Source: a virus
Taxonomy: Duplodnaviria > Heunggongvirae > Uroviricota > Caudoviricetes
Virus record (IMG/VR): IMGVR_UViG_2711768167_000007
Location: 1-14,399 of that record
DNA: 14,399 bases
Direction: 5' to 3' (one strand)
Below the pieces are notes generated by a model. That model had not been told where the DNA came from. It ran no database searches and saw only the letters and a list, made by a program, of their open reading frames with translations. Of the stretch, positions 1-14,399 are shown one piece after another. Positions within the stretch are counted from its first letter, which is position 1. Each line of letters opens with the position of its first letter. Made by a program: the position numbers and the translations under genes.

Positions 1-1104
1 ATGAAAAATTTAACAGTGGCACTTTCTGCTGTAGCAGCATCAGTATTTCTGGCAATGTCTGCAAATGCAGCAGAAATATATAATAAAAACAGTAATAAAC
101 TGGATTTATATGGCAAAGTAGGGGGTAAACATTACTTTTCTTCTAACGCCAAAGAAGAAGGTGATGGAACTTATGCCCGTCTTGGATTCAAAGGTGAAAC
201 CCAAATCAACAATCAGTTAACTGGTTTTGGTCAATGGGAATATGAATTCAAAGGCAACAAGGCAGAAAAAGATGGCTCTGCAGGAGACAAAACCCGTCTG
301 GCATACGCTGGCCTGAAACTAGAAAATATTGGCTCTCTGGATTATGGTCGTAACTATGGCGTGGTGTATGACGCATTAAGCTATACTGATGTCCTCCCTG
401 AATTTGGGCCTGGTTCTGTTAACGGGGATAACTTCTTCGTGGGTCGTGTAGGTGGTGTTGCCACTTACCGTAATACCGACTTCTTCGGTCTGGTTGATGG
501 ACTGAACTTTGCGGTTCAGTATCTGGGTAAAAATGAGCGTGACAATGCAGGCACTTCAAACGGCGACGGTGTTGGCGGCTCTGTCAGTTATGAATATGAA
601 GGCTTTGGTTTTGTAGCTGCATATGGTGCAGCCGATCGCACCAATGCACAGGAAGCGACGACTTTTGGTAAAGGTAAAAAAGCTGAACAGTGGGCTACCA
701 GCGTAAAATATGACGCGAATAATCTGTACCTGGCAGCCACTTATGGTGAAACACGTAATACCCGCGCAATCAAGTACTCGCCCGGCGGCTACAACGGTGT
801 AGCCAATAAAACTGAAGATTTCGCTGTAGTTGCACAGTATCAGTTCGACTTTGGTTTGCGCCCGTCTCTTGCTTATATCCAGTCGAAAGCCAAAGACCTT
901 TCCACCAAAACTGGTATCCCTGAAAAACATAATGACGGATACATTGAAAAATTCATTGAAGTCGGTGCTGCTTATTACTTCAACAAAAATATGTCTACAT
1001 ACGTAGACTATAAAATCAACCTGCTTGATAAGAATCAATTCACTGAAAGAACTGATGTATTAACCGATGATATTGTCGCTGTTGGTTTGACTTATCAGTT
1101 CTGA
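1..1104 (+). CDS. Outer-membrane general porin, OmpC/OmpF/PhoE family (prophage-borne NmpC/Lc-like)
   Basis: ATG at position 1. Predicted signal peptide [23 protein letters not shown] then AEIYNK. Conserved porin blocks ([94 protein letters not shown]) and C-terminal ...VGLTYQF with terminal Phe typical of beta-barrel outer-membrane proteins. Position next to Q matches nmpC in DLP12 and lc in PA-2 (recalled). Confidence 0.9.
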
Positions 1105-1248
1105 TTTGTTTTGTAAGAATATGTCGGGAGAGTGAAACTTTTCTGACATATAAAGTGGTGCCCTCATGCCACTGCAAAACGTTGGACAGTACTTAACTTT
1201 TCCAACGGACTTTCTGTTATTTATTACCGTTTTTTGTTGTTTATACTT

Positions 1249-1277
1249 GGGCGCTTTGCGCCCGTTCTTTTATTTAT
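1249..1277 (+). terminator. Candidate rho-independent terminator downstream of the porin gene
   Basis: Perfect GC hairpin GGGCGC-TTT-GCGCCC (1249-1263) followed by T-rich GTTCTTTTATTTAT. On the minus strand the hairpin is followed by an A-rich tract, so it is probably unidirectional. Confidence 0.45.
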
Positions 1278-1287
1278 CCTGTACGCC

Positions 1288-1713
1288 TTATATCCCTGCC
1301 CTGAAGGACGGAGTTTTACGGCACATCGAATAATTTACGCTCACATACCGATCCATCTCAAGTCTTACTCCCAGCATCATCAACATGCCATCAACCACTC
1401 CTTCAGCTTTTTGCAAACGCTTTCCAATATGCGTATCAGAACATCCATGTTTCCTTGCTAACTTCATCAGCGTCATCCCACACACGTAGTAATCAACCAG
1501 CAATTCATGCAAATCACTGTTGTTCCGGTTCAGTTGAGCCATACAACCACAGATAATCATCGCGTCATCATCGGAACACTGCGGTCGCGATTTTACTTTT
1601 GACGGTATCAGCCCCTTGAATCCGGCGGCAATGGATGACCATTCCACGTCTTCGTGGTTATTCGCCACCCATGCCCCCCATCGCTCCATAACCTGCTGAA
1701 TATCACGCGCCAT
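1288..1713 (-). CDS. Late-gene antitermination protein Q-like (DLP12 QuuD-type)
   Basis: N-terminal [35 protein letters not shown]...SRPQC...[14 protein letters not shown] resembles QuuD-type Q proteins as I recall them. The track start at 1722 is a GTG; the first ATG is Met4 at 1713, which fits the family N-terminus better. Lies directly downstream of rusA, as in DLP12. Confidence 0.75.
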
Positions 1714-2074
1714 TGTTACCACCTGTAATTTCGTAAATCTTCACTCCCAGACGCCCGTCAGGTATTGACACGCCACGCACGATATAAATTTCATCAAACT
1801 GTTCGTCATCAATAAGCAGCCCCGCATGGGTCAGCGCATCCAGCGGTACTTTCAGTATGTTGTCCAGGTCACGGCGGCGGTTGTCTGGCGGGTCTGCGAT
1901 GATTTTTATACCCAGTCTTCCGGTCAGCCTTAATCTCAGTTGCTGCTGGCGAACAATAAGCCTGACATCACGACGATAACGTTCCCCCGCTTTTGATACA
2001 AAATACTTACCACCACGACGGTGCCAGTAAGTGTTCACCGGCGGCGGGTAAGGCAAAACAAATTCCAGACGCAT
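1703..2074 (-). CDS. rusA: Holliday-junction resolvase RusA
   Basis: 123 aa. N-terminal [11 protein letters not shown] and the acidic catalytic block [29 protein letters not shown] correspond to RusA (E. coli RusA has DRRRRDLDN...DALT...DD). GGAGG-containing RBS about 6 nt upstream of the ATG at 2074. Overlaps the Q gene start. Confidence 0.85.
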
Positions 2075-2192: not shown

Positions 2193-3053
2193 TCATTGCT
2201 CACACTCCCCAACCAGATTGAGTATGACCGCAGCGCTATTGTCTTTCATATATTCGCCCTTTCCGCTTGCCAAAAACCAACGACACACCTCCACGGCTTC
2301 AGCCCGTGTCACCGGTTTGATGGTCATCAGCAATTTTTCAAGGTAGCGCTCGCGGTCATATACCGATTCGTGATGCTCAAAGTAACCAAACTCATCGCCC
2401 TGTTCTTTAGTTGCAGTGTGGCGAACACTGTAGAGCCAGTCCCAGTAAACAAACTCACGAACTACGTCTGACAATGTATGAGGCTCTGGCAGTACATCAC
2501 GATAGCCATCAACATATGCACGACGCTGATCATCAATTTCATTCATACGGATGCCGTCAATTCTGCCCGCTTTCTTCTCGGCTGCAGTCCAGCCCCAGAG
2601 ATGATCGTCGATAAATTTCTGGGAAGACTTGATCACTCGCTCGGCTTCCACATCTTCGAGTGCTGCTTCATAGCTACCAAACGTAGCCCTGACTGATGCT
2701 GCTTTTTTGATATTCTCCCGGGCGATCCTGATTGCCTGTGCCGGGTTATCCATGCCGATGGTACCGAAAGCAATCTGGAAAGGATCGCCACCATTCGCCA
2801 GCAGATAACGCGAATAGCGTTCCTGGGCCTCTTTTGGGGATATTTTAATTTTCACCAGCGCGGCCTCAGCAGCATCCAGATGTGCGGGTTCGTTCAGACG
2901 GATAACCTCCAGTACCCAAAGATAAGCATCAGTCTGCTTATGCCCGGTGATTCTCCGTTGCTCTGGCAGGGGTTTGATGTTTGCGAGGGCGGAGCTGTAC
3001 GCTGCCGTCGGGATGGTGAATAGTGCTTTATGTTCGTTGTTATCAGTACGCAT
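2193..3053 (-). CDS. Hypothetical phage protein (nin-region position), 286 aa
   Basis: Long ORF with ATG start; its start overlaps the stop of the upstream primase-like gene (TAATG). No family recognised by eye. Confidence 0.55.
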   Translation of the reverse strand: MRTDNNEHKALFTIPTAAYSSALANIKPLPEQRRITGHKQTDAYLWVLEVIRLNEPAHLDAAEAALVKIKISPKEAQERYSRYLLANGGDPFQIAFGTIGMDNPAQAIRIARENIKKAASVRATFGSYEAALEDVEAERVIKSSQKFIDDHLWGWTAAEKKAGRIDGIRMNEIDDQRRAYVDGYRDVLPEPHTLSDVVREFVYWDWLYSVRHTATKEQGDEFGYFEHHESVYDRERYLEKLLMTIKPVTRAEAVEVCRWFLASGKGEYMKDNSAAVILNLVGECEQ

Positions 3054-4021
3054 TACGCAGCCGCCTTTTTCTTATGGAAAACCAGCTCCCGAACCTGATC
3101 ACCGTTCATGAGCATATTGTTGAAATCATCGTGATCCGGCCAGTACACGCTCACGCGCTGCAGGTCATTCTTTGCCATCAGATTGGCATGAGCACATTCG
3201 CAAGCCGCAGCCAGCCCGGTGGCGCTGTTCTCGTCACGGTCGGCAAAAATAATCAGGTGCAGAACACCAGCTGGTACGCGGAACTTTTTCATAAAGCCGC
3301 TGTTAATGGTTGCCCAGGTGTTCACGTTATAAATCTGGTGCGCTGACAGCGCTGTTTCGATGCCTTCGGCGATACCCAGAGTGCTGGCGACAGGAAACAT
3401 GCGGATAGCTACAGAACGAGCGTGATCCAGATAGTTATCTTCCTGCAGGGATTTTAGGCGCTTTGCACTGCTACCGATATCTGCTTTTTTATCACCATCA
3501 AGCAGGGTCTGGTGCAGATAGCACAGCTCCCCTTTATCGTCCGTAGCAAGTGAATAAAGAGACTGGAACACACTCCCGTTGTGTCTCTGCCTGGCATTGA
3601 ACCTGATCGCCTCAGCAGGAAGACTGAATATTCCACGAGAATTAAGATACGCGGCGCCGGATGTACCACGCAGTGCCTCCAGTTTTGAAAACTTGCTCAA
3701 TACCCGTTTGCGTAAGCTGGTGGCGCTGCTGGTTACCGGGATTTTAACCCGTTGGTAATTATTACCGATCAGGCGGTCTATTTCGGTACAAATCACGTTA
3801 AATGGCTTCGCCTGTGTCAGGGTGACAAGTTTCATACCATCGCCACTACCACATACACAGATCCACGTTCCTGCACCGTCGCGGTCGTCAATTCGGAACT
3901 TGCCACGTGCACCGCATACCGGGCATTCACCCTTAAAGTGATTTTTTCCGGTTATCGGCGGCAGACCGAAGTGCTCTAATATTTCAGGCCAGCGGCCTTT
4001 CGCTGCATCTGCTGTTTTCAT
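3053..4021 (-). CDS. Primase-like protein with N-terminal zinc-binding motif and Toprim domain
   Basis: CPVCGARGKFRIDDRDGAGTWICVCG zinc-ribbon-like motif near the N-terminus and an acidic Toprim-like block LIIFADRDENSATG. Start lies 2 nt after the helicase stop (translational coupling). Confidence 0.75.
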   Translation of the reverse strand: MKTADAAKGRWPEILEHFGLPPITGKNHFKGECPVCGARGKFRIDDRDGAGTWICVCGSGDGMKLVTLTQAKPFNVICTEIDRLIGNNYQRVKIPVTSSATSLRKRVLSKFSKLEALRGTSGAAYLNSRGIFSLPAEAIRFNARQRHNGSVFQSLYSLATDDKGELCYLHQTLLDGDKKADIGSSAKRLKSLQEDNYLDHARSVAIRMFPVASTLGIAEGIETALSAHQIYNVNTWATINSGFMKKFRVPAGVLHLIIFADRDENSATGLAAACECAHANLMAKNDLQRVSVYWPDHDDFNNMLMNGDQVRELVFHKKKAAA

Positions 4022-4022
4022 C

Positions 4023-5681
4023 TTACTGACTCAGACTGTTTATATTTTTCTGGAGTTGTTGCTTTGCCTGCATAATGCGCCAAGCCTCACTTTCTTCCGG
4101 TGGAACATACCGGCCACCAACAACCAGTGGCAGAGAAAGCACTTCGGATGAGTTTTTCGTCATCCTCCGTGTCCGTTCACGACCTTTAGCAAACCGGATC
4201 AGCTTGTGTCTGATGTAGTTACTTACCTCTGGGCTTATTTCCATCGGGAAACTGCTCAACCCATCAGGCCATTCACCGAATTTCTCCCTGAAAGTGTGAG
4301 CGCACCATCCATCACTGACTGGACGCCCCAGTGAGGCACGCTGGCGCTGATAAAATTTGATCTGACTCCACCAGGCCTGTTTCTCTGCCTTCGTGGACTG
4401 ATGCTGATTTTTACCCAGCTTATTAAGTTTGCGGCTAGTGTCAGTATCAACGTCTTCACCTCGCAGCGGCTTGTGTCCACATTTCGGGCAAACATAGACG
4501 CCAGCTGGCTTCATGTAGTGGCATTGAGGGCATTCATGTGGCAATTTTTCGGCCCGTTCCTCAACTGCGCGGCGCGTGCTTTCCTCCATGCCGTCAGACT
4601 TACCGGGAAGATCGTCGTACTCGATTGAATCCGGATAACCCAGACGGTGCACGGTGCCGCTGTGATCGAAGATAAGGCAGGACGCTTTACCCGGTGCGGT
4701 GCGAAGTCCACGCCCGAGTGCCTGCAACCAGCGAATTTCGCTTTTTGTTGGCCTGGCGTAGATGATGCAACGAACGTCACTATCGAATCCGGCTACCAGA
4801 ACGCCCACACTAACGATGATTTTCGTTGCACCGGTTTCAAAGCGGTGAATGATGGTCTGGCGCTCATCTACCGGAGTGTCGGCGGTCATTACCTCAGCGT
4901 TAACACCCGCCAGGTTAAACTGGATTGTCAGATAATTGGCGTGAGCTACGTTGACGCAGAAAGCGATGGTAGGTAAATCCCGACCATTCTCCAGCCAGTT
5001 CTGTACGATGTCGCCCACCAGCGTAGAGCCGCACATGATTTCAGCCAGCTGCGTTTCGTTGTAATCCCGGCCGTACTCAAGCGAAGATGTGGTTTTAACA
5101 CCTTTCAGATCCGGCTTAGTTGGCGCGTAAAATTCGTATTTACTCAGATCGCCACGCTGGATTAACTCGCCGATGGTGGTCGGCTTAATCAGTCGGTCAT
5201 AGTATTTGCCCAGGAACGGAGAAAACGGAGTACCCGACAGGCCAATCACCTTTACGCCTTTGCCGCGCAGACGTTCGATATCCTTCAGGATGCGTTTTTT
5301 ACGCAGGTGCGCTTCGTCGATAATCAGCAGATCGATATTTTCAGGAAAAACACGACGAATAAGCGTGTCAGCGCTGGCAATCTGAATTTTCCGGTCCGGA
5401 TCGTAGTTCGGGTGATCCGCCCAGATATAACCGATTTCATCTCCAGGTAAACCATACTGCACGAACCGATTAGCCGTCTGACCAATCAGGATGGTGTACG
5501 GAACACAGAACAGAACGCGCATACCACGGCTGACAAAACCAGCAACTATGAAGGCTGCCAGACCCGTTTTACCGCTACCGGTTGGCGAGTACACCATGAA
5601 AGTGTCGTTTGCCTTCCAGTCACGGCGCAACATGTTTAACGCTCGTTCCTGTGCAAAATTCGGCGTGATCGTCAGCTCCAT
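4023..5681 (-). CDS. SF2 (DEAD/DEAH-box type) helicase with C-terminal zinc ribbon; putative replicative helicase of the prophage
   Basis: Walker A VYSPTGSGKTG, motif II LLIIDEAHL, motif III LSGTPF, motif VI QALGRGLR, and CPQC...CPKC zinc ribbon in the C-terminal extension. Occupies the position lambda O/P would take, between the cII-position gene and the nin region. Confidence 0.85.
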   Translation of the reverse strand: MELTITPNFAQERALNMLRRDWKANDTFMVYSPTGSGKTGLAAFIVAGFVSRGMRVLFCVPYTILIGQTANRFVQYGLPGDEIGYIWADHPNYDPDRKIQIASADTLIRRVFPENIDLLIIDEAHLRKKRILKDIERLRGKGVKVIGLSGTPFSPFLGKYYDRLIKPTTIGELIQRGDLSKYEFYAPTKPDLKGVKTTSSLEYGRDYNETQLAEIMCGSTLVGDIVQNWLENGRDLPTIAFCVNVAHANYLTIQFNLAGVNAEVMTADTPVDERQTIIHRFETGATKIIVSVGVLVAGFDSDVRCIIYARPTKSEIRWLQALGRGLRTAPGKASCLIFDHSGTVHRLGYPDSIEYDDLPGKSDGMEESTRRAVEERAEKLPHECPQCHYMKPAGVYVCPKCGHKPLRGEDVDTDTSRKLNKLGKNQHQSTKAEKQAWWSQIKFYQRQRASLGRPVSDGWCAHTFREKFGEWPDGLSSFPMEISPEVSNYIRHKLIRFAKGRERTRRMTKNSSEVLSLPLVVGGRYVPPEESEAWRIMQAKQQLQKNINSLSQ

Positions 5682-6094
5682 TGTGCAGCTCCCGTGCTGA
5701 TGAGATAATAATTTTGTGATGTGGTTTTCATGGATTCCCCCTCACATGGCTGGTGGCCTCCCCAAAGGCTGCCAGCCTCCCTTCTGATTCAGCTCCTCTG
5801 AAAAATCACTCTTCCAGGAAGAATCCTTTTCGTTTCTCAGCGCCTGAGCGCTTTGTACTACCTTGCTGATACGGGCGTTTTTTTAAATTGCGCCCTTAAG
5901 ACAGTGATCTACTTAACCAATGGATCTCTCCTGTTGGAAAAGACCCTATTCCTGCCCCAACACCCAATCCCCCCTTACCCCCCTTACCCTCTTCCCCATA
6001 AAAACGTACTACTTCCCTAGTACACATGAGGAGTTGGGTCAGTTGGTTGCCAACCTGAACAGGCACCTTTAAGCCTGCTTCTGTTCGGGTACCT
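5682..6094. other. Structured 413-bp intergenic region upstream of the helicase gene (candidate promoter and/or replication-origin region)
   Basis: Non-coding gap inside an otherwise tightly packed operon. Contains imperfect direct repeats GGCTGGTGGCCTCCCC (5748-5763) and GGCTGCCAGCCTCCC (5767-5781), a palindrome AGGCTGCCAGCCT (5766-5778), a hairpin GTACTA-N6-TAGTAC (about 6005-6022), a palindrome GGTTGCCAACC (about 6044-6054) and a C-rich tandem-repeat tract. Function is inferred, not shown. Confidence 0.35.
5971..5988. repeat. Tandem 9-mer CCCCTTACC x2 inside a C-rich tract (5955-5997)
   Basis: Direct reading: ccccttacc (5971-5979) immediately followed by ccccttacc (5980-5988), flanked by further C runs. 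The minus strand here is G-rich with at least four G runs. Confidence 0.8.
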
Positions 6095-6403
6095 TTAAAC
6101 CCGAAACAATGAGGAGCGCGATTGCGATCCAGCCAGGGGAGGTTCGGCTGTATACCCCTGTAAAGCTCTGCCCTGATTTCTTACAAACAGGCGGAGCCTT
6201 GTGTTTGCTTCGTGCCTTGCTCTGTTCTCCTTGCGGAATGAAACAGGCTCAGCGTCAAAAGTGATTTCGTATACCTCCGCATATTTCAGGGCAACCTTCC
6301 GTCTCAGTGACGGAGGCAGCCCCTGTAACTGCTGCTGAATCCACTCTTCGTCTGCCTGGCAGTACCTAGATGGCATCTCTGTCTGAACGTAATTCTGGGA
6401 CAT
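6095..6403 (-). CDS. Hypothetical protein at the cII position (possible regulatory protein), 102 aa
   Basis: ATG start 12 nt downstream of the Cro-like gene's stop. Identity not recognised; call rests on position only. Confidence 0.5.
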   Translation of the reverse strand: MSQNYVQTEMPSRYCQADEEWIQQQLQGLPPSLRRKVALKYAEVYEITFDAEPVSFRKENRARHEANTRLRLFVRNQGRALQGYTAEPPLAGSQSRSSLFRV

Positions 6404-6415
6404 ACAAGCCCTTCA

Positions 6416-6688
6416 TCATTCGTTTTTCATAACTGCCGCATTTGTGGCTGTGTGACTTCTACGTAACAAATCAGGGATTGCATCTTCAGGATGGGGATAA
6501 AGATCTGGTCTTAACCCATGAGGAGTAACTTTCCATTCCACAACTTCACATACACGCAAGACGAAACGAGCAGGAATTGTTCTTTTTGAAAACCATTGGT
6601 TCACAGCTTGCGGCGTAACGCCTAGATTTCGCGCTATGGCATTTTGTGCAATTAGCTCACGAAGTGCGTCGTAATCATTTCCTTTCAT
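6416..6688 (-). CDS. Cro-like / YdaS-type helix-turn-helix regulator, 90 aa
   Basis: Small protein with HTH-like segment RNLGVTPQAVNQWFSKRTIPARFVLRV. Transcribed divergently from the CI-like repressor across an operator-bearing intergenic region. Confidence 0.75.
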   Translation of the reverse strand: MKGNDYDALRELIAQNAIARNLGVTPQAVNQWFSKRTIPARFVLRVCEVVEWKVTPHGLRPDLYPHPEDAIPDLLRRSHTATNAAVMKNE

Positions 6689-6822
6689 CGCAACCCACCA
6701 ATCTAAACTTTATAAATTCAAGATTACATCAAGTTTAAATTAACATGCAAGTCCACAAAAGATCGAATACACTAAAATCAAGTAAAAATTTATCGAAACC
6801 AAGTAACCAGCAAGGATTAACA
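6689..6822. promoter_or_regulatory. Divergent immunity promoter/operator region (oR-like) between Cro-like and CI-like genes
   Basis: AT-rich 134-bp gap between divergent HTH genes. ATCAAGT motif at 6728-6734 and 6777-6783; the 13-mer aaatcaagtaaaa (6775-6787) recurs beyond the repressor gene at 7540-7552. Confidence 0.55.
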
Positions 6823-7512
6823 ATGAAAAACTTAAAGAGCACTGAAAATCGAATTACAAAGCTGCTACAGGAGAAAGGCTGGAGCCAAGCAGAGCTGGCC
6901 CGAAAGTTAGGTGTCAGCGCACAGTCCGTACAGTACTGGACAACAGGAAAAACATTTCCAAGGGGAAACCGGCTTGCCCAGTTATCCGAAATAAGTGGTT
7001 ATCCGCAATCGTGGTTTTTAGGAGAAATCACGTCACGGCAGTTCTCTTCAAAGGAAAAACATCAAGCAAGAACTGACAGTGTGGTCTTTAACGTGCTCGA
7101 TGTTGAGTTTAGTTGCGGCGATGGAACACATGTCCGTGGGGACTTTATCGATGTAGTTCGCTCAATCGAGCTTGATCCTGAATATGCCCGTCGCCTTGTT
7201 GGCAATAGAGCATTTCAAAACATAGAGATTGGTAACGCAAGAGGAGATAGTATGGCTCCAACAATAGCCCCAGGAGATCTTCTTTTTCTCGATAAAACAG
7301 TGAATTACTTTGATGGTGATGGCATTTATGCTTTTTGCTTTGATGGTGAATGCTACGTCAAAAGATTACAAAAGATAGGAAGTAAAATCATGGTGTTATC
7401 TGATAACCCAAATTACCAATCCTGGAGCATTGAAAAAGATGCTCTTGAGCTGCTTTATATCCAATCGAAGGTAATATCATCTGTTCCATTCAATATAAAT
7501 AGATTTGGTTAA
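6823..7512 (+). CDS. CI-like prophage repressor (N-terminal HTH-XRE, C-terminal S24 LexA-type peptidase domain)
   Basis: HTH segment GWSQAELARKLGVSAQSVQYWTTGKTFP; S24 catalytic motifs GDSMAPT (Ser) and VKRL (Lys). Start chosen at the ATG at 6823 (RBS AGGA about 6 nt upstream) rather than the track's 6745 ATG, because 6745-6822 carries the operator repeats. Confidence 0.85.
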   Translation: MKNLKSTENRITKLLQEKGWSQAELARKLGVSAQSVQYWTTGKTFPRGNRLAQLSEISGYPQSWFLGEITSRQFSSKEKHQARTDSVVFNVLDVEFSCGDGTHVRGDFIDVVRSIELDPEYARRLVGNRAFQNIEIGNARGDSMAPTIAPGDLLFLDKTVNYFDGDGIYAFCFDGECYVKRLQKIGSKIMVLSDNPNYQSWSIEKDALELLYIQSKVISSVPFNINRFG

Positions 7513-7659
7513 TTATTTATTATTAAAGAAAAAATTTACAAATCAAGTAAAAGAGACGCAGAAATCAATTTTTTCTTGACAACCCCATCAATCAAGATCT
7601 AACATCACACCATCAATTTTAACTTGATTTGTTGTTAATTTTAAATTGATGGTGATTCA
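7513..7659. promoter_or_regulatory. oL/pL-like promoter-operator region driving the plus-strand early operon
   Basis: ATCAAGT at 7542-7548, ATCAAG at 7591-7596 and inverted CTTGAT at 7623-7628. TTGACA at 7576-7581 with TAACAT 18 bp downstream (7600-7605). Perfect 12-bp inverted repeat CACCATCAATTT (7608-7619) / AAATTGATGGTG (7643-7654) overlapping the start region of the next gene. Confidence 0.5.
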
Positions 7660-8088
7660 ATGAAAGATCTGACAACCACTGAGATATCGAACTTAAACCA
7701 CTTCGAAAAAGAATCCTTTGCATTAAATATTGCAAATCTGGTAGGTGCTGCTCGTACTTTCCATTTAATTGATGGTGATCGCTCTAAAGAATTGGGGTTT
7801 GAAGTCATGGAGTTTGTTCATGAATACGCCCTGTCTGCTACTTATCCATTACATAATCACATAATCAACAAACAACCAAATAAAATCCGCACCCAACGCG
7901 AAGCCTGCGGCTTAACAACCGCCGAACTCGCCAGGCTGCTCGATCTCGATGAAGAAATTATCATCCAGTGGGAAAGCGGAGAGTACGAACCAACCATCAG
8001 CATGCTTATCCCTCTGGCTAATGTTCTTGGCTGTGATCCAATGTTGTTATTGACTGATGCTTATAAACAAAATCAGGAGGAAGCATAA
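7660..8088 (+). CDS. HTH-XRE DNA-binding protein with uncharacterised N-terminal domain, 142 aa
   Basis: C-terminal segment IRTQREACGLTTAELARLLDLDEEIIIQWESGEYEPTISMLIPLANVLGCDPMLL is a typical XRE-family HTH; the N-terminal 70 aa are unrecognised. First gene after the oL-like region. Confidence 0.65.
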   Translation: MKDLTTTEISNLNHFEKESFALNIANLVGAARTFHLIDGDRSKELGFEVMEFVHEYALSATYPLHNHIINKQPNKIRTQREACGLTTAELARLLDLDEEIIIQWESGEYEPTISMLIPLANVLGCDPMLLLTDAYKQNQEEA

Positions 8089-8089
8089 G

Positions 8090-8281
8090 ATGAAAATGTT
8101 CAAAGGCCTTACCAACGAACCGGAAACAGCTTTTCATCACATTGCCGTACTGCTTGAAGCGGGGTTAATCATTTCGGCTTCCGGTGATGATGAATGTGAT
8201 GAACTTTCGGATGATATCTTTTTACTGGCACAACAATACGCCAGAAGCGCATGCGATGCATTTAAGGAGCAAAGAACATGA
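8090..8281 (+). CDS. Small acidic hypothetical protein, 63 aa
   Basis: ATG at 8090 is 2 nt after the upstream stop, with AGGAGG 9 nt upstream. Preferred over the track's 8057 start, which overlaps the upstream gene. Rich in Asp/Glu. Confidence 0.5.
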   Translation: MKMFKGLTNEPETAFHHIAVLLEAGLIISASGDDECDELSDDIFLLAQQYARSACDAFKEQRT

Positions 8282-8469
8282 AAACGCCCATGACTATGCT
8301 CGAATATGTAGCCGCAGAAATAAAAGAAAACACGTCAATGCTTGAGTTTATCTTTAAAAATTCGCCCGACTCAGGAGAGTTAGACGATTATTTATGTTGT
8401 CTCATCAGGTCCATGAATAAGACCTGTGAAATGGCTTACGAGTATATAGAAACACTACGTAACGAATAA
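8278..8469 (+). CDS. Small acidic hypothetical protein, 63 aa
   Basis: ATGA start/stop overlap with the preceding gene; AAGGAG 7 nt upstream. Acidic composition. Confidence 0.5.
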   Translation: MKTPMTMLEYVAAEIKENTSMLEFIFKNSPDSGELDDYLCCLIRSMNKTCEMAYEYIETLRNE

Positions 8470-8653
8470 AGAATACTCAATAAAAAATCACACATAAAAA
8501 CATGACGGCCTCTGGTCGGGAGTTTTCACAACCAGAAAATAATGGTGATACATGAAAAATAGAAGCGCTTATAAAACCGCCTTATTAATGGCTAATGCAG
8601 GATACTGGTCAGTTGCAATACTGTTTCTTAGGAAAGCATACGGGAAATAACAA

Positions 8654-9013
8654 ATGGCATATGAAATCATTGGTAAATATCGTCACCGCATAGTCACAAC
8701 AGCATTACAGCGGATGCAACGTAAAACAGGAGGAAATCTTCTCATCGTAAATCTTCCTGACGGAGGGTTAACTACCATCGAAATTACGGAACACTTCATG
8801 ACACAACTGTTATTACGATTTGAAGGTCTTACCCGTGTTGAATTTGGACGGACGGATGGCGAGACCGCAATACTTGCCGCATACCGGAATGCCATCAATA
8901 TTAATCAACACACTGAGTATCTAACTGAATCGGGGAAGTTAATTGTAGACAACCTTTTAAAAGAGGTTGTTGATTACGAAAAAGAAAAATATACCAGTGG
9001 AGGAATTAACTGA
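8654..9013 (+). CDS. Hypothetical protein, 119 aa
   Basis: ATG-initiated ORF after a 184-bp gap; stop overlaps the next ORF's start (TGATG). Confidence 0.5.
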   Translation: MAYEIIGKYRHRIVTTALQRMQRKTGGNLLIVNLPDGGLTTIEITEHFMTQLLLRFEGLTRVEFGRTDGETAILAAYRNAININQHTEYLTESGKLIVDNLLKEVVDYEKEKYTSGGIN

Positions 9014-9222
9014 TGTCTGATTTATCCCCTCTTATACACGAAAAAGTAAATATCGTGCTGACAATCGAGAACGGGAAAGTTATCCACGTGCGCCCGGTTC
9101 AGAACGGCGAGGTTACAGCATCGCTGGAGACTTTTTTATGGATGGCTGAACGCGCCGGTTACACGATCACCCCACCTGCAGGAGAGAAGGACAATGGCCC
9201 TGACAGCGATACGAATTCCTGA
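9013..9222 (+). CDS. Hypothetical protein, 69 aa
   Basis: ATG overlapping the upstream stop. Its 3' end overlaps the 9194 ORF by 29 nt, so one of the two may be shorter or not real. Confidence 0.4.
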   Translation: MSDLSPLIHEKVNIVLTIENGKVIHVRPVQNGEVTASLETFLWMAERAGYTITPPAGEKDNGPDSDTNS

Positions 9223-9415
9223 GCGGGTGCACCTGCAGGCGGTCCGTGTTCTCCGCAAGTTCAGAGCCAGACGAATTCATCCCTGTCGTATGCACGGCTC
9301 CGGAAACCTGAGTCTGAGGGTTAATCGCCGCTGGCGGCTGCTGTCCCGAGACGGCGGCCAGAACTGGGAAGTAATGAGCCATGAACGATACAGCAAAGTT
9401 AAGGACCGGAAATGA
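9194..9415 (+). CDS. Hypothetical arginine-rich small protein, 73 aa
   Basis: ATG at 9194 with GAGAAGGA RBS-like sequence just upstream; strongly basic (many Arg). Overlaps the preceding ORF. Confidence 0.3.
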   Translation: MALTAIRIPERVHLQAVRVLRKFRARRIHPCRMHGSGNLSLRVNRRWRLLSRDGGQNWEVMSHERYSKVKDRK

Positions 9416-9448
9416 ACAATAAACCTTCAAACCAAAAGGAGAGTATTG

Positions 9449-10027
9449 ATGATTAATTCAACCATTACCCCTGAACCTACATTAACAGGCATCCGTTTTG
9501 GTAATCGAATTATTGGTTATTCAACTGCGGTTCGCCAGATCGACAACGGTAACTATGACAAACGAATTCCGGACGGGCTCGATCTGATAGCTTGCATTAT
9601 GGAAGGGATTGAAAGCGGCTGGTTTATGCCGGGTATTGAAAAACAAATCATCCTATGGCGCTGGCTTGTTGTCGCCGTGTTCATTGCTGAGGAGCAGGAG
9701 AAGAACGGGACTGTCGATGTTCAGAATGACAAGGGCGGCGTAGATACAGCCGTTGTATACACAGGAAAACCCGGTTCAATCAGCATTTATCCGTGGTCTG
9801 AGCGCTTCACGCTCGCCAACCATATTGAGGCGGGCGCAATTGAAAAATACGGGCCTGACGTTGGCCAGCAGATGGCGCTGCGTATGTATCAGGACATGGT
9901 TGTAACTGACGAGAAATGCGGATTCAGGCTGTCAGCGATGGGCCAGGAGGGATTCAACATACTACATGACAGCTTCATTGAACTGATTCAGAAAGACGGT
10001 ATGCCAGACATGCCGGTTATGCACTGA
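9449..10027 (+). CDS. Hypothetical protein, about 192 aa
   Basis: The track ORF begins at a TTG (9446); the first ATG is at 9449 with AAAGGAGAG RBS 7 nt upstream. Followed 11 nt later by the next gene. Confidence 0.55.
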   Translation: MINSTITPEPTLTGIRFGNRIIGYSTAVRQIDNGNYDKRIPDGLDLIACIMEGIESGWFMPGIEKQIILWRWLVVAVFIAEEQEKNGTVDVQNDKGGVDTAVVYTGKPGSISIYPWSERFTLANHIEAGAIEKYGPDVGQQMALRMYQDMVVTDEKCGFRLSAMGQEGFNILHDSFIELIQKDGMPDMPVMH

Positions 10028-10038
10028 GGTGGACGAAA

Positions 10039-10788
10039 ATGAACATAGTAACGATCAATAACAAACAGTTTCCGGTAATCGACTATCGCGGTCAGCGCGT
10101 GGTGACGCTGGCGATGATTGATGAAGTGCACCAACGCCCAGACGGAACAGCGGGACGCAATTTCCGCGAAAACAAGTCTCGTCTTATTGAAGGGGAAGAC
10201 TACTTCGAATTAGGTTCCGACGAAATTCGTCGACACCTCCCTGACGGTACTTTCTCAAAATTTGCAGCAGCAGGAATTGTACTGGTCGAATCCGGTTATT
10301 TGATGTTGGTGAAATCCTTCACCGACGATCTGGCCTGGCAGGTTCAGCGCGAACTGGTTAACAGCTACTTCCGCACTCGCGCACCTCTTTCTGAAATCGA
10401 GATGATCGCCGCAATGGCCGCCGATGCCGTTCGCCAGCAGAAGCGCCTGAATCATGTGGAAGAACAGCTCGAAACAGTCACAGAAGCGGTGGAAACCATC
10501 AAACGCGGAAATATGCGCGCCGGATATGTCGGTTATCGCCAGGTGGTCGCCAAAAGCGGAATGACTGATGCTAAGTGCCGCAATCTGGTCAATGCCTACA
10601 GCATCCCAACCGATACGCACGAATTTATGACACCAGATGGTCTTCTTTCGCGCCGGGCTATCGTGGAGCTGGAGCCGTTCATGAAAGCATTTCATCAGAT
10701 GATGTCAGAGGCAGAGCCACGCGGCACACGCTGGTATCACCCGAAGATGGGACTTTTCCAGGTGATCGGATGGGAGGATAAAGCATGA
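10039..10788 (+). CDS. ORF6N/KilA-N-superfamily domain protein (antirepressor-like DNA-binding protein), 249 aa
   Basis: N-terminal segment QRVVTLAMIDEVHQRPDGTAGRNFRENKSRLIEGEDYFEL follows the ORF6N pattern (...RN..RF.eDF.F.L..eE) as I recall it. GAGGTGG RBS upstream. Coupled to neighbours on both sides. Confidence 0.6.
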   Translation: MNIVTINNKQFPVIDYRGQRVVTLAMIDEVHQRPDGTAGRNFRENKSRLIEGEDYFELGSDEIRRHLPDGTFSKFAAAGIVLVESGYLMLVKSFTDDLAWQVQRELVNSYFRTRAPLSEIEMIAAMAADAVRQQKRLNHVEEQLETVTEAVETIKRGNMRAGYVGYRQVVAKSGMTDAKCRNLVNAYSIPTDTHEFMTPDGLLSRRAIVELEPFMKAFHQMMSEAEPRGTRWYHPKMGLFQVIGWEDKA

Positions 10789-11354
10789 TCATCCAGTCAA
10801 AACTTATTCGCGCCGCTCTGGTGTGCGCTGCTAAAAACGACGTTCGTTATTACCTGAACGGTCTTCACATCACGCCGAAACATATTGAGGCAACCAATGG
10901 TTGCGTGGCACTGCGCATGGCTCACGGCATCCGGACGAAGAAAAACATCATTGTCCAGTTCGAAGGGGGCGTACCGGCCAAAGCCGAAACGACAGAGCTG
11001 ATTTTTAGTAAAGAGCCGATCGCTGTTCATCGCGACCAGTTTCAGCGACGACTGTCCATTACCGGCATAAAACTGGTGGACGGTTGTTTTCCGGATTTGG
11101 ATCGCATCATTCCGAAAAAGTTTGACCGCTGTACTCATCCGGTGATCCAGGCGGGTTACCTGAGTTATCCAGAGAAGATGTTTGGTCGTGAGCGTAAATT
11201 TATTCCCGTCCAGTTACGTCCCTCCGGTGACGGGCAAGCGGTCAGAATTCAGTTTGATTCCATCATCAACTCAATGTATGGCAATCCTGAATTTGTTGTG
11301 ATGCCTTGTCGTGATTATGGCGATTTCAACGTGGCTCAGGAGCATCCGGAATGA
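10785..11354 (+). CDS. Shortened beta-sliding-clamp (DnaN)-like protein, 189 aa
   Basis: Motif-level matches to E. coli DnaN recalled from memory: NDVRYYLNG vs QDVRYYLNG (start of DnaN domain II), KLVDGCFPDLDRIIPK vs KLVDGRFPDYRRVLPK (end of domain II), C-terminal EFVVMPCR vs AYVVMPMRL. ATGA overlap with the upstream gene; GGGAGGA RBS. Confidence 0.6.
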   Translation: MIIQSKLIRAALVCAAKNDVRYYLNGLHITPKHIEATNGCVALRMAHGIRTKKNIIVQFEGGVPAKAETTELIFSKEPIAVHRDQFQRRLSITGIKLVDGCFPDLDRIIPKKFDRCTHPVIQAGYLSYPEKMFGRERKFIPVQLRPSGDGQAVRIQFDSIINSMYGNPEFVVMPCRDYGDFNVAQEHPE

Positions 11355-11575
11355 AAATCGAATACCAGGACTATGGCGCCGTAGCGAACATCGTGATCAC
11401 CAGTTCCCGCCTGACATTGCAAAAGCATAACCGCGTTGTTGATGCGGTGCTGTTTAATGTACAGGGGATCTATGAAAACCGCAGCGGCTTTTTCTGGGTT
11501 AAGTCATCGTTGTCAGGAAAAACACGCGACATCCTGCGCGCCTACAAAATCGTACAGCGGGAGGCAAAGCGATGA
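11351..11575 (+). CDS. Hypothetical protein, 74 aa
   Basis: ATGA-coupled to the upstream gene, with CAGGAGC RBS-like sequence. Confidence 0.45.
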   Translation: MKIEYQDYGAVANIVITSSRLTLQKHNRVVDAVLFNVQGIYENRSGFFWVKSSLSGKTRDILRAYKIVQREAKR

Positions 11576-11667
11576 AGTCATTCCTCCTGTCCATGCTGTT
11601 TGGTCTGCTGCTGGCGTCCGTCGTTTTCGGTGCGCTGATTGAATATAAATTTTTAATGAATTACTGA
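11572..11667 (+). CDS. Candidate small hydrophobic (single-TM-like) peptide, 31 aa
   Basis: Not in the ORF track (too short). ATG at 11572 overlaps the upstream stop (ATGA). Translation MKSFLLSMLFGLLLASVVFGALIEYKFLMNY is dominated by a hydrophobic stretch. Confidence 0.3.
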   Translation: MKSFLLSMLFGLLLASVVFGALIEYKFLMNY

Positions 11668-11675
11668 GGTGCGGA

Positions 11676-12305
11676 ATGAGCAAGATCAAAAACCCAGTTG
11701 TACTTATCCATAAACGAGAAAATAGTGACTCCTACGCCGTTGCAATCACCTGCGGTAGCCAGAACTATCACGACGCCGTTCTGATGGCGTCGATGGAACT
11801 GGATATGAGTGACGATGATGTCGATACCTGGAGTAAAACCGGCTACTACATGGCTCAAGAAATCGAGCGACTTAAACAAGCGCTGTCCGCTGCGGAAAAT
11901 AATTTGATTGATTCCGAATGCCTCGTCGCTGAATTAAGCAAAGCAAAGAATCACGCATATGGGCTGGTCGACACATACGACTGGCAACGTCAGCGTCTCC
12001 ACGCAGCCGCAGAGAAAGTCATCAAATGGTGCAGACAAGAAGCTGAACACCGTACCGGCGACCCAGAGAAAGCAGAAAACTATGCGTGTGTTAAAGAACT
12101 ACGCGACGCATTAACTTTTTGCAAAAGTTCTGAAGGCAGCAAGAAGAAAGGCCTGACCATCACCCTGCCCGATATCACATCAAAGGCATTCTGGAGCGGT
12201 ACCGGAAAAAACGCAAAATTCCATCCGGAAACCTATAAACGCTGGGTGAAAGAAGCTGTCAAACGGGATTGTGTTATTGCCGGGATCGGCGTGGAGGTGA
12301 AATGA
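11676..12305 (+). CDS. Hypothetical protein, 209 aa
   Basis: ATG with GAGGTG RBS. No family recognised; occupies the region where lambda carries ea-type accessory genes. Confidence 0.55.
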   Translation: MSKIKNPVVLIHKRENSDSYAVAITCGSQNYHDAVLMASMELDMSDDDVDTWSKTGYYMAQEIERLKQALSAAENNLIDSECLVAELSKAKNHAYGLVDTYDWQRQRLHAAAEKVIKWCRQEAEHRTGDPEKAENYACVKELRDALTFCKSSEGSKKKGLTITLPDITSKAFWSGTGKNAKFHPETYKRWVKEAVKRDCVIAGIGVEVK

Positions 12306-12388
12306 TGAATTGGCCTGAAGCATTCACCGCAGTAGGAGTTGCAATAGCGGTGGCATTTATTCTGTATTCGCTTTTCCGCTGGGGATAA
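12302..12388 (+). CDS. Candidate small hydrophobic peptide, 28 aa
   Basis: Not in the ORF track. ATG at 12302 overlaps the upstream stop (ATGA). Translation MMNWPEAFTAVGVAIAVAFILYSLFRWG has one hydrophobic helix-length segment. Confidence 0.3.
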   Translation: MMNWPEAFTAVGVAIAVAFILYSLFRWG

Positions 12389-12392
12389 AGGA

Positions 12393-12635
12393 ATGTTCGC
12401 TCTGATTCAACGTGGTCAGATATACACCGATAGTGCTGGCTACCCGGTAAAAATTATTCGCTGCATAAACAACACTGTGTTGTACAGAAGAATGGATGGG
12501 AGAACACAGTCGGTAAAAATAAACGATTTCAATGAACTGTTTGAACGGATTGATCACCAGGAATACCGACAAATTCTGGCAGAAACAGAGCAGGAAGCTC
12601 ATCTGAAAAAATTACGGGCCATGAAAAGGAAGTAA
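12393..12635 (+). CDS. Hypothetical small protein, 80 aa
   Basis: ATG with AAGGA RBS 3 nt upstream. Basic C-terminus. No family recognised. Confidence 0.5.
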   Translation: MFALIQRGQIYTDSAGYPVKIIRCINNTVLYRRMDGRTQSVKINDFNELFERIDHQEYRQILAETEQEAHLKKLRAMKRK

Positions 12636-12638
12636 AGA

Positions 12639-12785
12639 ATGAATAAAGCATTTGAACTATGGGTGCGCCAGCGTTATGGCAATCGCTATGACCTGACGCG
12701 AGATGTTGACGGTTTCTACTGTCGTGAAATTGTGAAACGAATGTTTGAAGTGTGGTGCCACTGCCGTGGGCTGAGTGTTGTGTGA
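12639..12785 (+). CDS. Hypothetical small protein, 48 aa
   Basis: Not in the ORF track. ATG at 12639 with AAAAGGAAG upstream; translation MNKAFELWVRQRYGNRYDLTRDVDGFYCREIVKRMFEVWCHCRGLSVV. Confidence 0.35.
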   Translation: MNKAFELWVRQRYGNRYDLTRDVDGFYCREIVKRMFEVWCHCRGLSVV

Positions 12786-12793
12786 GGTAATGC

Positions 12794-13030
12794 ATGGGCA
12801 ATGTGATTCAACTGGCTCCCAATGAATGGGTTTGTGAAAGCGTTCTAATCGCAATTACCGGGCTCAAACCAGGCACAATTCTTCGGGCCCGAAAAGAATG
12901 CTGGATGGTTGGAAGAGAGTATATTCACGTATCACCAGACGGTAATCCAAAGCCTTCCAGTGAATGTATGTATAACAGAAAAGCAATAGATGCCTGGGTC
13001 GCTTCAATGAAAAACAAACAACCTGGGTGA
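12794..13030 (+). CDS. Excisionase-like protein (putative Xis)
   Basis: 78-aa protein immediately upstream of the integrase on the same strand. The segment GLKPGTILRARKECWMVGREYIHVSPDGNPKPSSECMYNRKAIDAWV resembles the putative-excisionase family of enterobacterial prophages as I recall it. Confidence 0.6.
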   Translation: MGNVIQLAPNEWVCESVLIAITGLKPGTILRARKECWMVGREYIHVSPDGNPKPSSECMYNRKAIDAWVASMKNKQPG

Positions 13031-13085
13031 TTTAATGCCATGAAGTATGTAAGCTCGTATCGCTCTTGGGCGTCTGGAGGTATCA

Positions 13086-14399
13086 ATGGATAAAGTCAAA
13101 TATCCAACAGGCGTCGAAAACCACGGCGGCACATTACGCATCTGGTTTAATTTTAAAGGTAAACGTGTCAGGGAAAATCTTGGTGTCCCTGACACTGCCA
13201 AGAACAGGAAAATCGCCGGGGAACTGCGGACATCGGTATGTTTTGCCATCCGCACAGGAAGCTTTGATTATGCTGCACAGTTCCCTGACTCCCCTAACCT
13301 TCAGGCTTTTGGGGTAAGTAAAAAAGAAATTACGGTGAAGGAACTTGAAGAAAAGTGGCTGGATCTGAAACGAATGGAGATCTCTGCAAATGCATTCAAT
13401 CGCTATGAATCCGTTGCAAGAACGATGGTTCCGAAAATTGGAGGCAGCAGACTGGTGTCATCGGTAACTAAAGAGGAATTGCTGTATATCAGGAAAGATT
13501 TGCTGACCGGGTACCAGAATTCAACGAAAAACAAAGCAGCAGCAAAAGGACGGAGCGTCGTTACTGTAAATTATTACATGACGACAATCGCTGGAATGTT
13601 TCAGTTTGCTGCAGATCACGGTTACTTAGAAGCAAATCCCTTCCAGGGAATTAAGCCTCTTAAAAGAGCCAGGGCAGAGCCAGATCCGCTAACTCGTGAC
13701 GAATTTATTCGCCTGATAGATGCTTGCCGACATCAGCAGACGAAAAACCTGTGGTCATTGGCTGTGTACACAGGAATGCGTCACGGTGAACTGGTCTCCC
13801 TGGCCTGGGAAGATATCGATCTGAAAGCAGGAACTATTACTATCAGGCGCAATTATACGAAACTCGGTGAGTTCACTCTACCTAAAACTGAAGCAAGTAC
13901 AAACAGGGTTGTGCATCTTATCCAGCCCGCTATCAGTGTCCTGAAAAATCAGGCTGAAATGACAAGACTGGGTAAGCAGCACCACATCAAGGTTCAACTA
14001 CGTGAATATGGGCGTTCAGTGAATCATGAATGTACTTTCGTATTTAACCCCCAGGTGGTTAGAAAAAGCAAACAGGTCGGTTTTATCTACAAGGTAGATT
14101 CTATTGGCGACTCATGGGAAACAGCCATTAAGCGTGCGGGCATCAGGCACCGGAAAGCATACCAGTCACGACACACTTATGCGTGCTGGTCATTATCTGC
14201 CGGAGCAAATCCAAGCTTCATTGCCAGCCAGATGGGCCATGCAAGTGCCCAGATGGTGTTCAATGTATACGGAGCATGGATGACTGACAGTAATGCAGAA
14301 CAGATCGCAATGCTGAATCAGAAGCTGGCAGATTATGTCCCAATGATGTCCCATGGTCACCAAAGTGACACAAGAGACTTATTAAAATCAGTGGGTTAG
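13086..14399 (+). CDS. Tyrosine site-specific integrase (phage integrase family)
   Basis: GGAGG RBS 5 nt upstream of the ATG. N-terminal arm-binding-type region (PTGVENHGGTLRIWFNFKGKRVRE), catalytic-domain motifs RHGELVSLAWEDIDL, SRHTYACW (box II R/H) and GHASAQMVFNVYGAW (His and Tyr nucleophile region). Stop codon is the last three bases of the window. Confidence 0.9.
   Translation: MDKVKYPTGVENHGGTLRIWFNFKGKRVRENLGVPDTAKNRKIAGELRTSVCFAIRTGSFDYAAQFPDSPNLQAFGVSKKEITVKELEEKWLDLKRMEISANAFNRYESVARTMVPKIGGSRLVSSVTKEELLYIRKDLLTGYQNSTKNKAAAKGRSVVTVNYYMTTIAGMFQFAADHGYLEANPFQGIKPLKRARAEPDPLTRDEFIRLIDACRHQQTKNLWSLAVYTGMRHGELVSLAWEDIDLKAGTITIRRNYTKLGEFTLPKTEASTNRVVHLIQPAISVLKNQAEMTRLGKQHHIKVQLREYGRSVNHECTFVFNPQVVRKSKQVGFIYKVDSIGDSWETAIKRAGIRHRKAYQSRHTYACWSLSAGANPSFIASQMGHASAQMVFNVYGAWMTDSNAEQIAMLNQKLADYVPMMSHGHQSDTRDLLKSVG

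Follow-up and report, generated by a model that had tools for sequence, protein, structure and literature searches.

The stretch of DNA analysed here (the window; 14,399 nt) is a lambdoid prophage read in reverse orientation, with a porin gene at its first bases and the gene for the antiterminator Q on the opposite strand next to it. The features of the window are as follows.

1–1104, plus strand: porin ORF, 367 aa (ORF call and Pfam Porin_1)
1–69, plus strand: signal peptide of 23 aa, cleaved between ANA and AEIYNK (alignment to mature OmpF chains)
70–1104, plus strand: mature porin of 344 aa, with the stop codon at 1102–1104
1105–1248, plus strand: structured 3′UTR of about 145 nt
1119–1151, plus strand: hairpin 1, directly after the porin stop, with compensatory changes across cassettes
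1154–1173, plus strand: hairpin 2
1181–1206, plus strand: hairpin 3
about 1209–1227, plus strand: the motif CTTTCTGTTATTTATTACC, common to six cassettes
1249–1277, plus strand: intrinsic terminator GGGCGC-TTT-GCGCCC, then GTTCTTTTATTTAT
1284–1333, minus strand: relic consisting of the terminal 50 bp of an IS609-like (IS200/IS605) left end, with its tip at 1333/1334
1288–1713 (141 aa, ATG at 1713) or 1288–1722 (144 aa, GTG at 1722), minus strand: antiterminator Q of the 933W/Stx-phage type (PF06530)
1703–2074, minus strand: RusA resolvase gene, upstream of Q (ORF and domain search)
beyond RusA, minus strand: HTH protein, primase, helicase and Cro-like gene
plus strand: CI-like repressor, anti-repressor, excisionase and integrase, the last ending at the window's last base

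The position of RusA upstream of Q shows that the early-right operon is read leftwards, in the direction of the porin. An antisense ORF at 556–1038 on the minus strand was also considered and set aside as being without support.

A sequence-only reading of this DNA had taken the porin to be carried by a phage rather than to be the chromosomal ompC or ompF gene, and its flanks agree with this, namely: Q and RusA on one side, and tRNA genes and a holin on the other. Window positions 1–1750 match the complete E. coli chromosomes LH50-c and GF60 at 99.9% identity, and three further complete E. coli genomes at about 84%. In LH50-c (locus L001, in which position 20001 corresponds to window base 1), three tRNA genes (Ile, Arg, Thr) lie to the left of the porin and are followed by holin, lysozyme, Rz, terminase, head and tail genes; the prophage itself adjoins mlrA. 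The tRNAs, holin, lysozyme, Rz, terminase and head/tail genes are found past window position 1 in every genome that has the porin, and the asnS-ompF-aspC synteny of the true ompF locus is not matched by the porin's neighbours.

The porin lineage is present in 5 of 5426 complete E. coli genomes, four of the five being from chicken or poultry. The identical porin protein is found in hundreds of assemblies; it is indexed in 374 collection blocks, with the same neighbours in all four of the distinct contexts listed. A megablast search of window positions 1–1750 against the phage collection gave no DNA match, and the porins found there by a protein-level search are all of the NmpC/Lc type, with about 63% identity. 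No publication citing the accessions of this porin protein was found. The LH50-c prophage has frameshifts in its capsid and rusA genes, indicating that some of the carriers are defective prophages. It should be noted that past 5.6 kb (window 5664–14399) the LH50-c prophage is matched in patches only, and that the window and LH50-c differ in the immunity region, in several early-left genes and in the integrase. This divergence points to the shuffling of modules among prophages, with a porin-Q-replication module that circulates among lambdoid prophages.

The porin matches Pfam Porin_1 over the entire model (positions 1–337 of 337; E = 7e-127, 423.9 bits, the cut-off being 23.7). Alignment to mature OmpF chains begins at residue 24 of the query, which places the signal peptide at residues 1–23, and the protein ends in ...TYQF with the terminal Phe present. 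Thus, the description of the gene as a complete OmpC-family porin with a signal peptide stands as regards completeness and signal peptide, but the family label is loose, since the best match among solved structures is E. coli OmpF (478 bits, E = 1.8e-142), compared to about 400 bits for OmpC and 381 for PhoE. Overall identity is 67–69% to OmpF, 67% to NmpC/Lc and 79% to a sister allele of the same lineage.

These overall values conceal a mosaic. The signal peptide is 78% identical to that of NmpC(/Lc) vs. 27% for OmpF, residues 24–105 are 80% identical to NmpC vs. 68% to OmpF, residues 106–300 are 58–63% identical to NmpC vs. 68–79% to OmpF, and residues 325–367 are 81% identical to NmpC vs. 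65% to OmpF. In addition, residues 303–316, in predicted loop L7, contain a 7-aa insertion that is found in this lineage only. The porin is not an ortholog of NmpC or Lc, given the 67% identity, the centre closer to OmpF and the separate lineage. Among 185k species representatives searched for a chromosomal donor, nothing is closer than the OmpF of E. albertii, at 66% identity. Judged from these comparisons, the porin is a previously undescribed OmpF-like variant with a lineage of its own.

All six of the OmpF constriction residues (K16, R42, R82, R132, D113 and E117) are kept. The L3 motif reads PEFGP instead of the near-invariant PEFGG in both alleles of the lineage (G120P; residues 137–138, window 409–414), and further changes relative to OmpF are D121G, D127N, R167G and R168T, with loss of the acidic D121 and D127. 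Replacements of G119 and G120 in OmpF are known to constrict the channel and to alter the response to colicin N. The presence of PEFGP in place of PEFGG therefore means that the pore properties may differ from those of OmpF. The AlphaFold model has 16 long strands and an L3 helix at moderate confidence (mean pLDDT 66.9, pTM 0.68), and in this moderate-confidence model the variable stretches fall in external loops.

Comparison with the 79%-identical sister allele gives a dN/dS of 0.19 at a dS of 0.70, with dN peaking in predicted loop segments; the porin is thus under purifying selection and is not decaying. Between the lineage's two alleles, the 390 bp upstream of the gene are 97–100% identical, whereas the coding sequences are only about 84% identical (L001 19615–20005 vs. 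window 1–1104), which suggests that allelic exchange is confined to the coding region.

Downstream of the porin, the claim of a GC hairpin with a T-run 11 bp from the Q stop codon is borne out by folding and by coordinates. The terminator scan reports TGGGCGCTTTGCGCCCG, then TTCTTTTATT, on the plus strand at 1248–1264; folding places the stem at 1249–1263, and the T-rich run extends from 1264 to about 1277, leaving 10–11 nt to the Q stop codon at 1288–1290. What that reading missed is the structured 3′UTR of about 145 nt that separates the porin stop from the terminator. The 181-nt 3′ region folds far better than shuffled sequences (z = −4.5). By count, terminator-like sites in 1–2200 are not above chance (3 vs. 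2.1 ± 1.5 in shuffles), but conservation of the terminator across six diverged porin cassettes indicates that it is real despite this chance-level count. Read on the minus strand, the hairpin leads into A-rich sequence; the terminator therefore acts on the plus strand only. The six cassettes aligned were that of the window, the sister allele, an nmpC-type cassette, lc and two IS-flanked non-phage copies, and they have in common four 3′ non-coding features, namely: hairpin 1, hairpin 2, CTTTCTGTTATTTATTACC and the terminator. Both hairpins at 1119–1173 have compensatory base changes across the cassettes, and they may stabilise the mRNA or yield a 3′UTR-derived small RNA. Rfam returned no family at threshold in the window, STnc550 and isrK near the cassette scoring far below their gathering scores.

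The promoter region, CRP site and late promoter pR′ lie outside the window and were read from genomes that are 99.4–99.9% identical to it over the first 5.6 kb. All six cassettes compared have a CRP site upstream of the porin; in L001 (19876–19891) it is a perfect TGTGA-N6-TCACA, and a CRP site is annotated at the equivalent position in the PA-2 GenBank record. A candidate sigma-70 promoter, TTGTAT-17-TAAATT (L001 19920–19948), matches the consensus at 7 of 12 positions and was not picked up by the promoter scan; relative to its predicted start site, CRP would be centred near −71.5. The GC content is 30–39% at the cassette edges, 46–49% in the middle and about 50% in the flanks, and H-NS could silence the AT-rich upstream region.

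Two different porin cassettes have an IS5-like element (ISKpn26) inserted 20–30 bp ahead of the conserved CRP site; one of these cassettes is in a prophage (one of the sister alleles, with the element 145 bp before the ATG) and the other in an IS-rich island. The insertions (L004 2657–3852 and L005 about 2641–3850) are at different target positions, about 145 bp upstream of the equivalent of window base 1. They recall the IS5-mediated activation of promoters at glpFK and bgl.

These observations bear on whether the porin gene is a remnant, either decaying or silent, that does nothing in the lysogen, like the nmpC of K-12, a pseudogene disrupted by IS5. Consistent with such a remnant are the K-12 precedent, the frameshifted structural genes of some carrier prophages, the IS5-like element in front of one sister allele and the very AT-rich upstream region. 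However, the reading frame is unbroken and retains every pore residue as well as the C-terminal Phe; dN/dS is low (0.19 at dS 0.70); the identical protein recurs across hundreds of assemblies; and the CRP site, 3′UTR hairpins and terminator are all conserved. We therefore consider a functionless remnant unlikely, and treat the gene as an intact porin under selection.

One part of the earlier reading does not hold, namely that late transcription from a Q-dependent promoter would run antisense through the porin gene. There is a single pR′ block, made up of TTTACG-N16-TATCAT, a conserved initial transcribed region and a hairpin, and its core 28-mer is located 391 bp upstream of the porin ATG in all five loci (L001 and L014–L017). 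Its direction is that of the tRNAs and holin, with the porin behind it. In the cassette-free Stx2a phages, Q abuts pR′ directly, the sequence after Q consisting of the last Q codons, TTTACG-N16-TATCAT and a GC hairpin with a T-run. In the carriers of the porin, homology to this post-Q sequence resumes 1.7 kb away, on the far side of the porin (L001 19529–19620).

The assignment of this block as pR′ was made through Sakai. There, TTTACG-16-TATCAT predicts a start at locus position 846, and the T-run of tR′ ends at 1103, giving 258 nt. Sy et al. reported that the distance from the pR′ start of the Sakai Stx2a phage (dRNA-seq) to the 3′ end of StxS (Term-seq) is 258 nt, and that StxS immediately follows the 144-aa Q (PMC7547250). 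The Sakai pR′ was matched by this 258-nt spacing, the coordinates in PMC7547250 being those of NC_002695.1 and the record compared being version.2. Since the predicted spacing equals the mapped length of StxS, the block is identified, by homology, as the late promoter.

Placing the late promoter just downstream of Q, within 1105–1287, so that antisense late transcripts couple shut-off of the porin to lytic growth, was a reasonable guess from the window alone, as pR′ overlaps the end of Q in cassette-free phages. Yet the window contains no pR′-like sequence, even with 3 mismatches allowed, and the minus strand of 1105–1287 has no promoter-like site. Moreover, 1105–1283 is part of the porin cassette, and the single pR′ block lies beyond the porin in 5 of 5 loci and likewise in the nmpC and lc phages. 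A late promoter next to Q is thus extremely improbable. The geometry that we favour is that the 1.7-kb cassette splits Q from pR′, so that the porin is outside the path of Q-dependent late transcription. On the minus strand, transcripts that run on past Q meet no terminator before the porin, and antisense transcription into the porin would arise only in this way, from the early operon.

Downstream of pR′, the 258-nt StxS/tR′ region is missing (L001 19403–19576). What is kept after pR′ is the first hairpin with its T-run (about +25 to +48) and approximately 125 bp, followed by the Ile, Arg and Thr tRNAs. In the absence of the StxS/tR′ region, the late leader is much shorter than in the Stx phages.

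The boundary between the cassette and Q is marked by a further element. Q itself matches PF06530 with E = 5.8e-52 and shares 78% DNA identity with the 144-aa Q of Stx2a phages, with homology breaking at 1332/1333. The tip of the IS609-like relic sits exactly where homology to other Q genes breaks, and the relic supplies the final 13 codons of Q together with its stop, i.e. a non-native C-terminal tail. The Q core is intact and conserved up to ...RLEMDRYV, and the DLP12-type Q works at 127 aa with no tail at all; hence, Q is probably still functional.

The 50 bp of the relic occur at about 9000–10000 places in about 4300–4900 of the 5426 E. coli genomes. Each of the five copies inspected is the terminal 50 bp of an IS609-like element; four lie beside tnpA, while the fifth, with no annotated tnpA, lies beside the 5′ end of tnpB. 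The copies end in ...GGATAA or, on the other strand, are each preceded by TTAT. The junction between relic and Q is found only in the five genomes with this porin lineage.

The relic raises the alternative that the porin is the cargo of an IS200/IS605-type (IS609-like) transposon, which entered Q by a ‘peel and paste’ single-strand move. The 50-bp left end does lie exactly at the cassette/Q junction, beside the TTAT that also flanks the IS609 copies compared, and related porin cassettes are found among IS elements outside prophages. A cargo would call for the rest of the element, but no IS609 right end, tnpA or tnpB was found at or near the other cassette boundary. In addition, no such relic is present in the nmpC and lc cassettes, which are in the same slot, and homology between cassettes stops before the relic starts. 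From this last point, the relic looks like a later and separate insertion that has mostly been deleted. Mobilisation as transposon cargo is therefore quite improbable, and we take the porin to belong to the family of phage cassettes that occupy this slot.

The membership of the locus in the nmpC/lc slot, which had been proposed from the window, is supported by known phages. PA-2 (lc) and Lambda_4C10, an nmpC-type lambda relative, have the same order of Q, reversed porin, pR′ block and lysis genes, and homologous 3′UTR, terminator and CRP site. The NmpC-like signal peptide, N-terminal third and C-terminus of lc/nmpC are also found in the window's porin, whereas its central 195 residues, which include L3, are closer to OmpF (74–79% vs. 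58–63% for NmpC). The upstream 390 bp are unrelated to those of the lc/nmpC cassettes except for the CRP site and core promoter. Furthermore, Q has 127 aa in DLP12, compared to the 933W-type Q of 141/144 aa with an IS-derived tail here, and in contrast to the lc/nmpC phages there are Ile, Arg and Thr tRNA genes beyond the cassette, which recalls the Stx phages. With OmpF (PDB 2OMF, 3HW9), the porin shares the constriction residues and the C-terminal YQF, and its moderate-confidence model has 16 strands, but loops L1, L2, L6, L7 and L8 differ and the signal peptide is unrelated (27%).

The Stx2a phages (933W, Sakai Sp5) have the same Q family, pR′ block and downstream tRNAs, as well as a passenger gene in the Q-to-S interval. 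However, stx is a late-strand gene that follows pR′ and tR′ and is transcribed by Q-modified RNA polymerase. The porin is instead located before pR′ and on the other strand, and it has its own terminator and a putative promoter. As for moron character, Q joins pR′ directly in Stx2a phages while 1.7 kb lie between the two here, and the cassette edges have 30–39% GC against about 50% in the flanks. On layout and composition, the cassette is a moron by the working definition, with a predicted promoter of its own.

More tentatively, and with less confidence than in the assignment of the locus itself, the cassettes could be one mobile family that has come to the Q/pR′ junction repeatedly, also moves among IS-rich islands, and has in its coding region a hot spot of exchange with host porin genes. 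The unit would then consist of the CRP-site promoter, the porin, the covarying 3′UTR and the terminator; mosaic exchange would give new surface-loop combinations on a conserved regulatory chassis; and the IS609 relic and the independent IS5-like insertions would be traces of mobilisation or of switching on.

Taken together, window positions 1–1283 very probably represent most of a 1.7-kb porin moron of the nmpC/lc family that has entered the 3′ end of Q, a gene of the 933W type, in a lambdoid E. coli prophage, with the 390 bp upstream portion of the cassette falling just outside the window. In the lysogen, the porin would be transcribed from its own weak sigma-70 promoter, probably in a CRP-dependent manner, and its transcript would stop at its own terminator before reaching Q. 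The protein would leave the cytoplasm through Sec and form trimers, as an OmpF-like diffusion pore whose surface loops are novel. Altered permeability and altered docking of phages and colicins have been described for Lc in PA-2 lysogens. By analogy, the permeability and the phage/colicin recognition surface of the carrier would change. Q would act in trans on pR′, which would fire away from the porin; with the promoter in this orientation, late transcription would not oppose the porin gene. During lytic growth, only read-through from early pR past Q would run antisense into it.

The gene is of a known kind of phage passenger; what is new is the porin lineage and the corrected transcription geometry. 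For models of late-gene control, porin-carrying lambdoid phages have a cassette between Q and its target promoter, and the porin is insulated from late transcription by its position and orientation, and from Q by its own terminator. Phage-borne porins can alter the entry of antibiotics and nutrients into the cell as well as the docking of phages and colicins. A predicted OmpF-like pore with novel loops, rare and with four of its five complete carrier genomes from poultry, could thus affect the phage susceptibility or drug permeability of its carriers.
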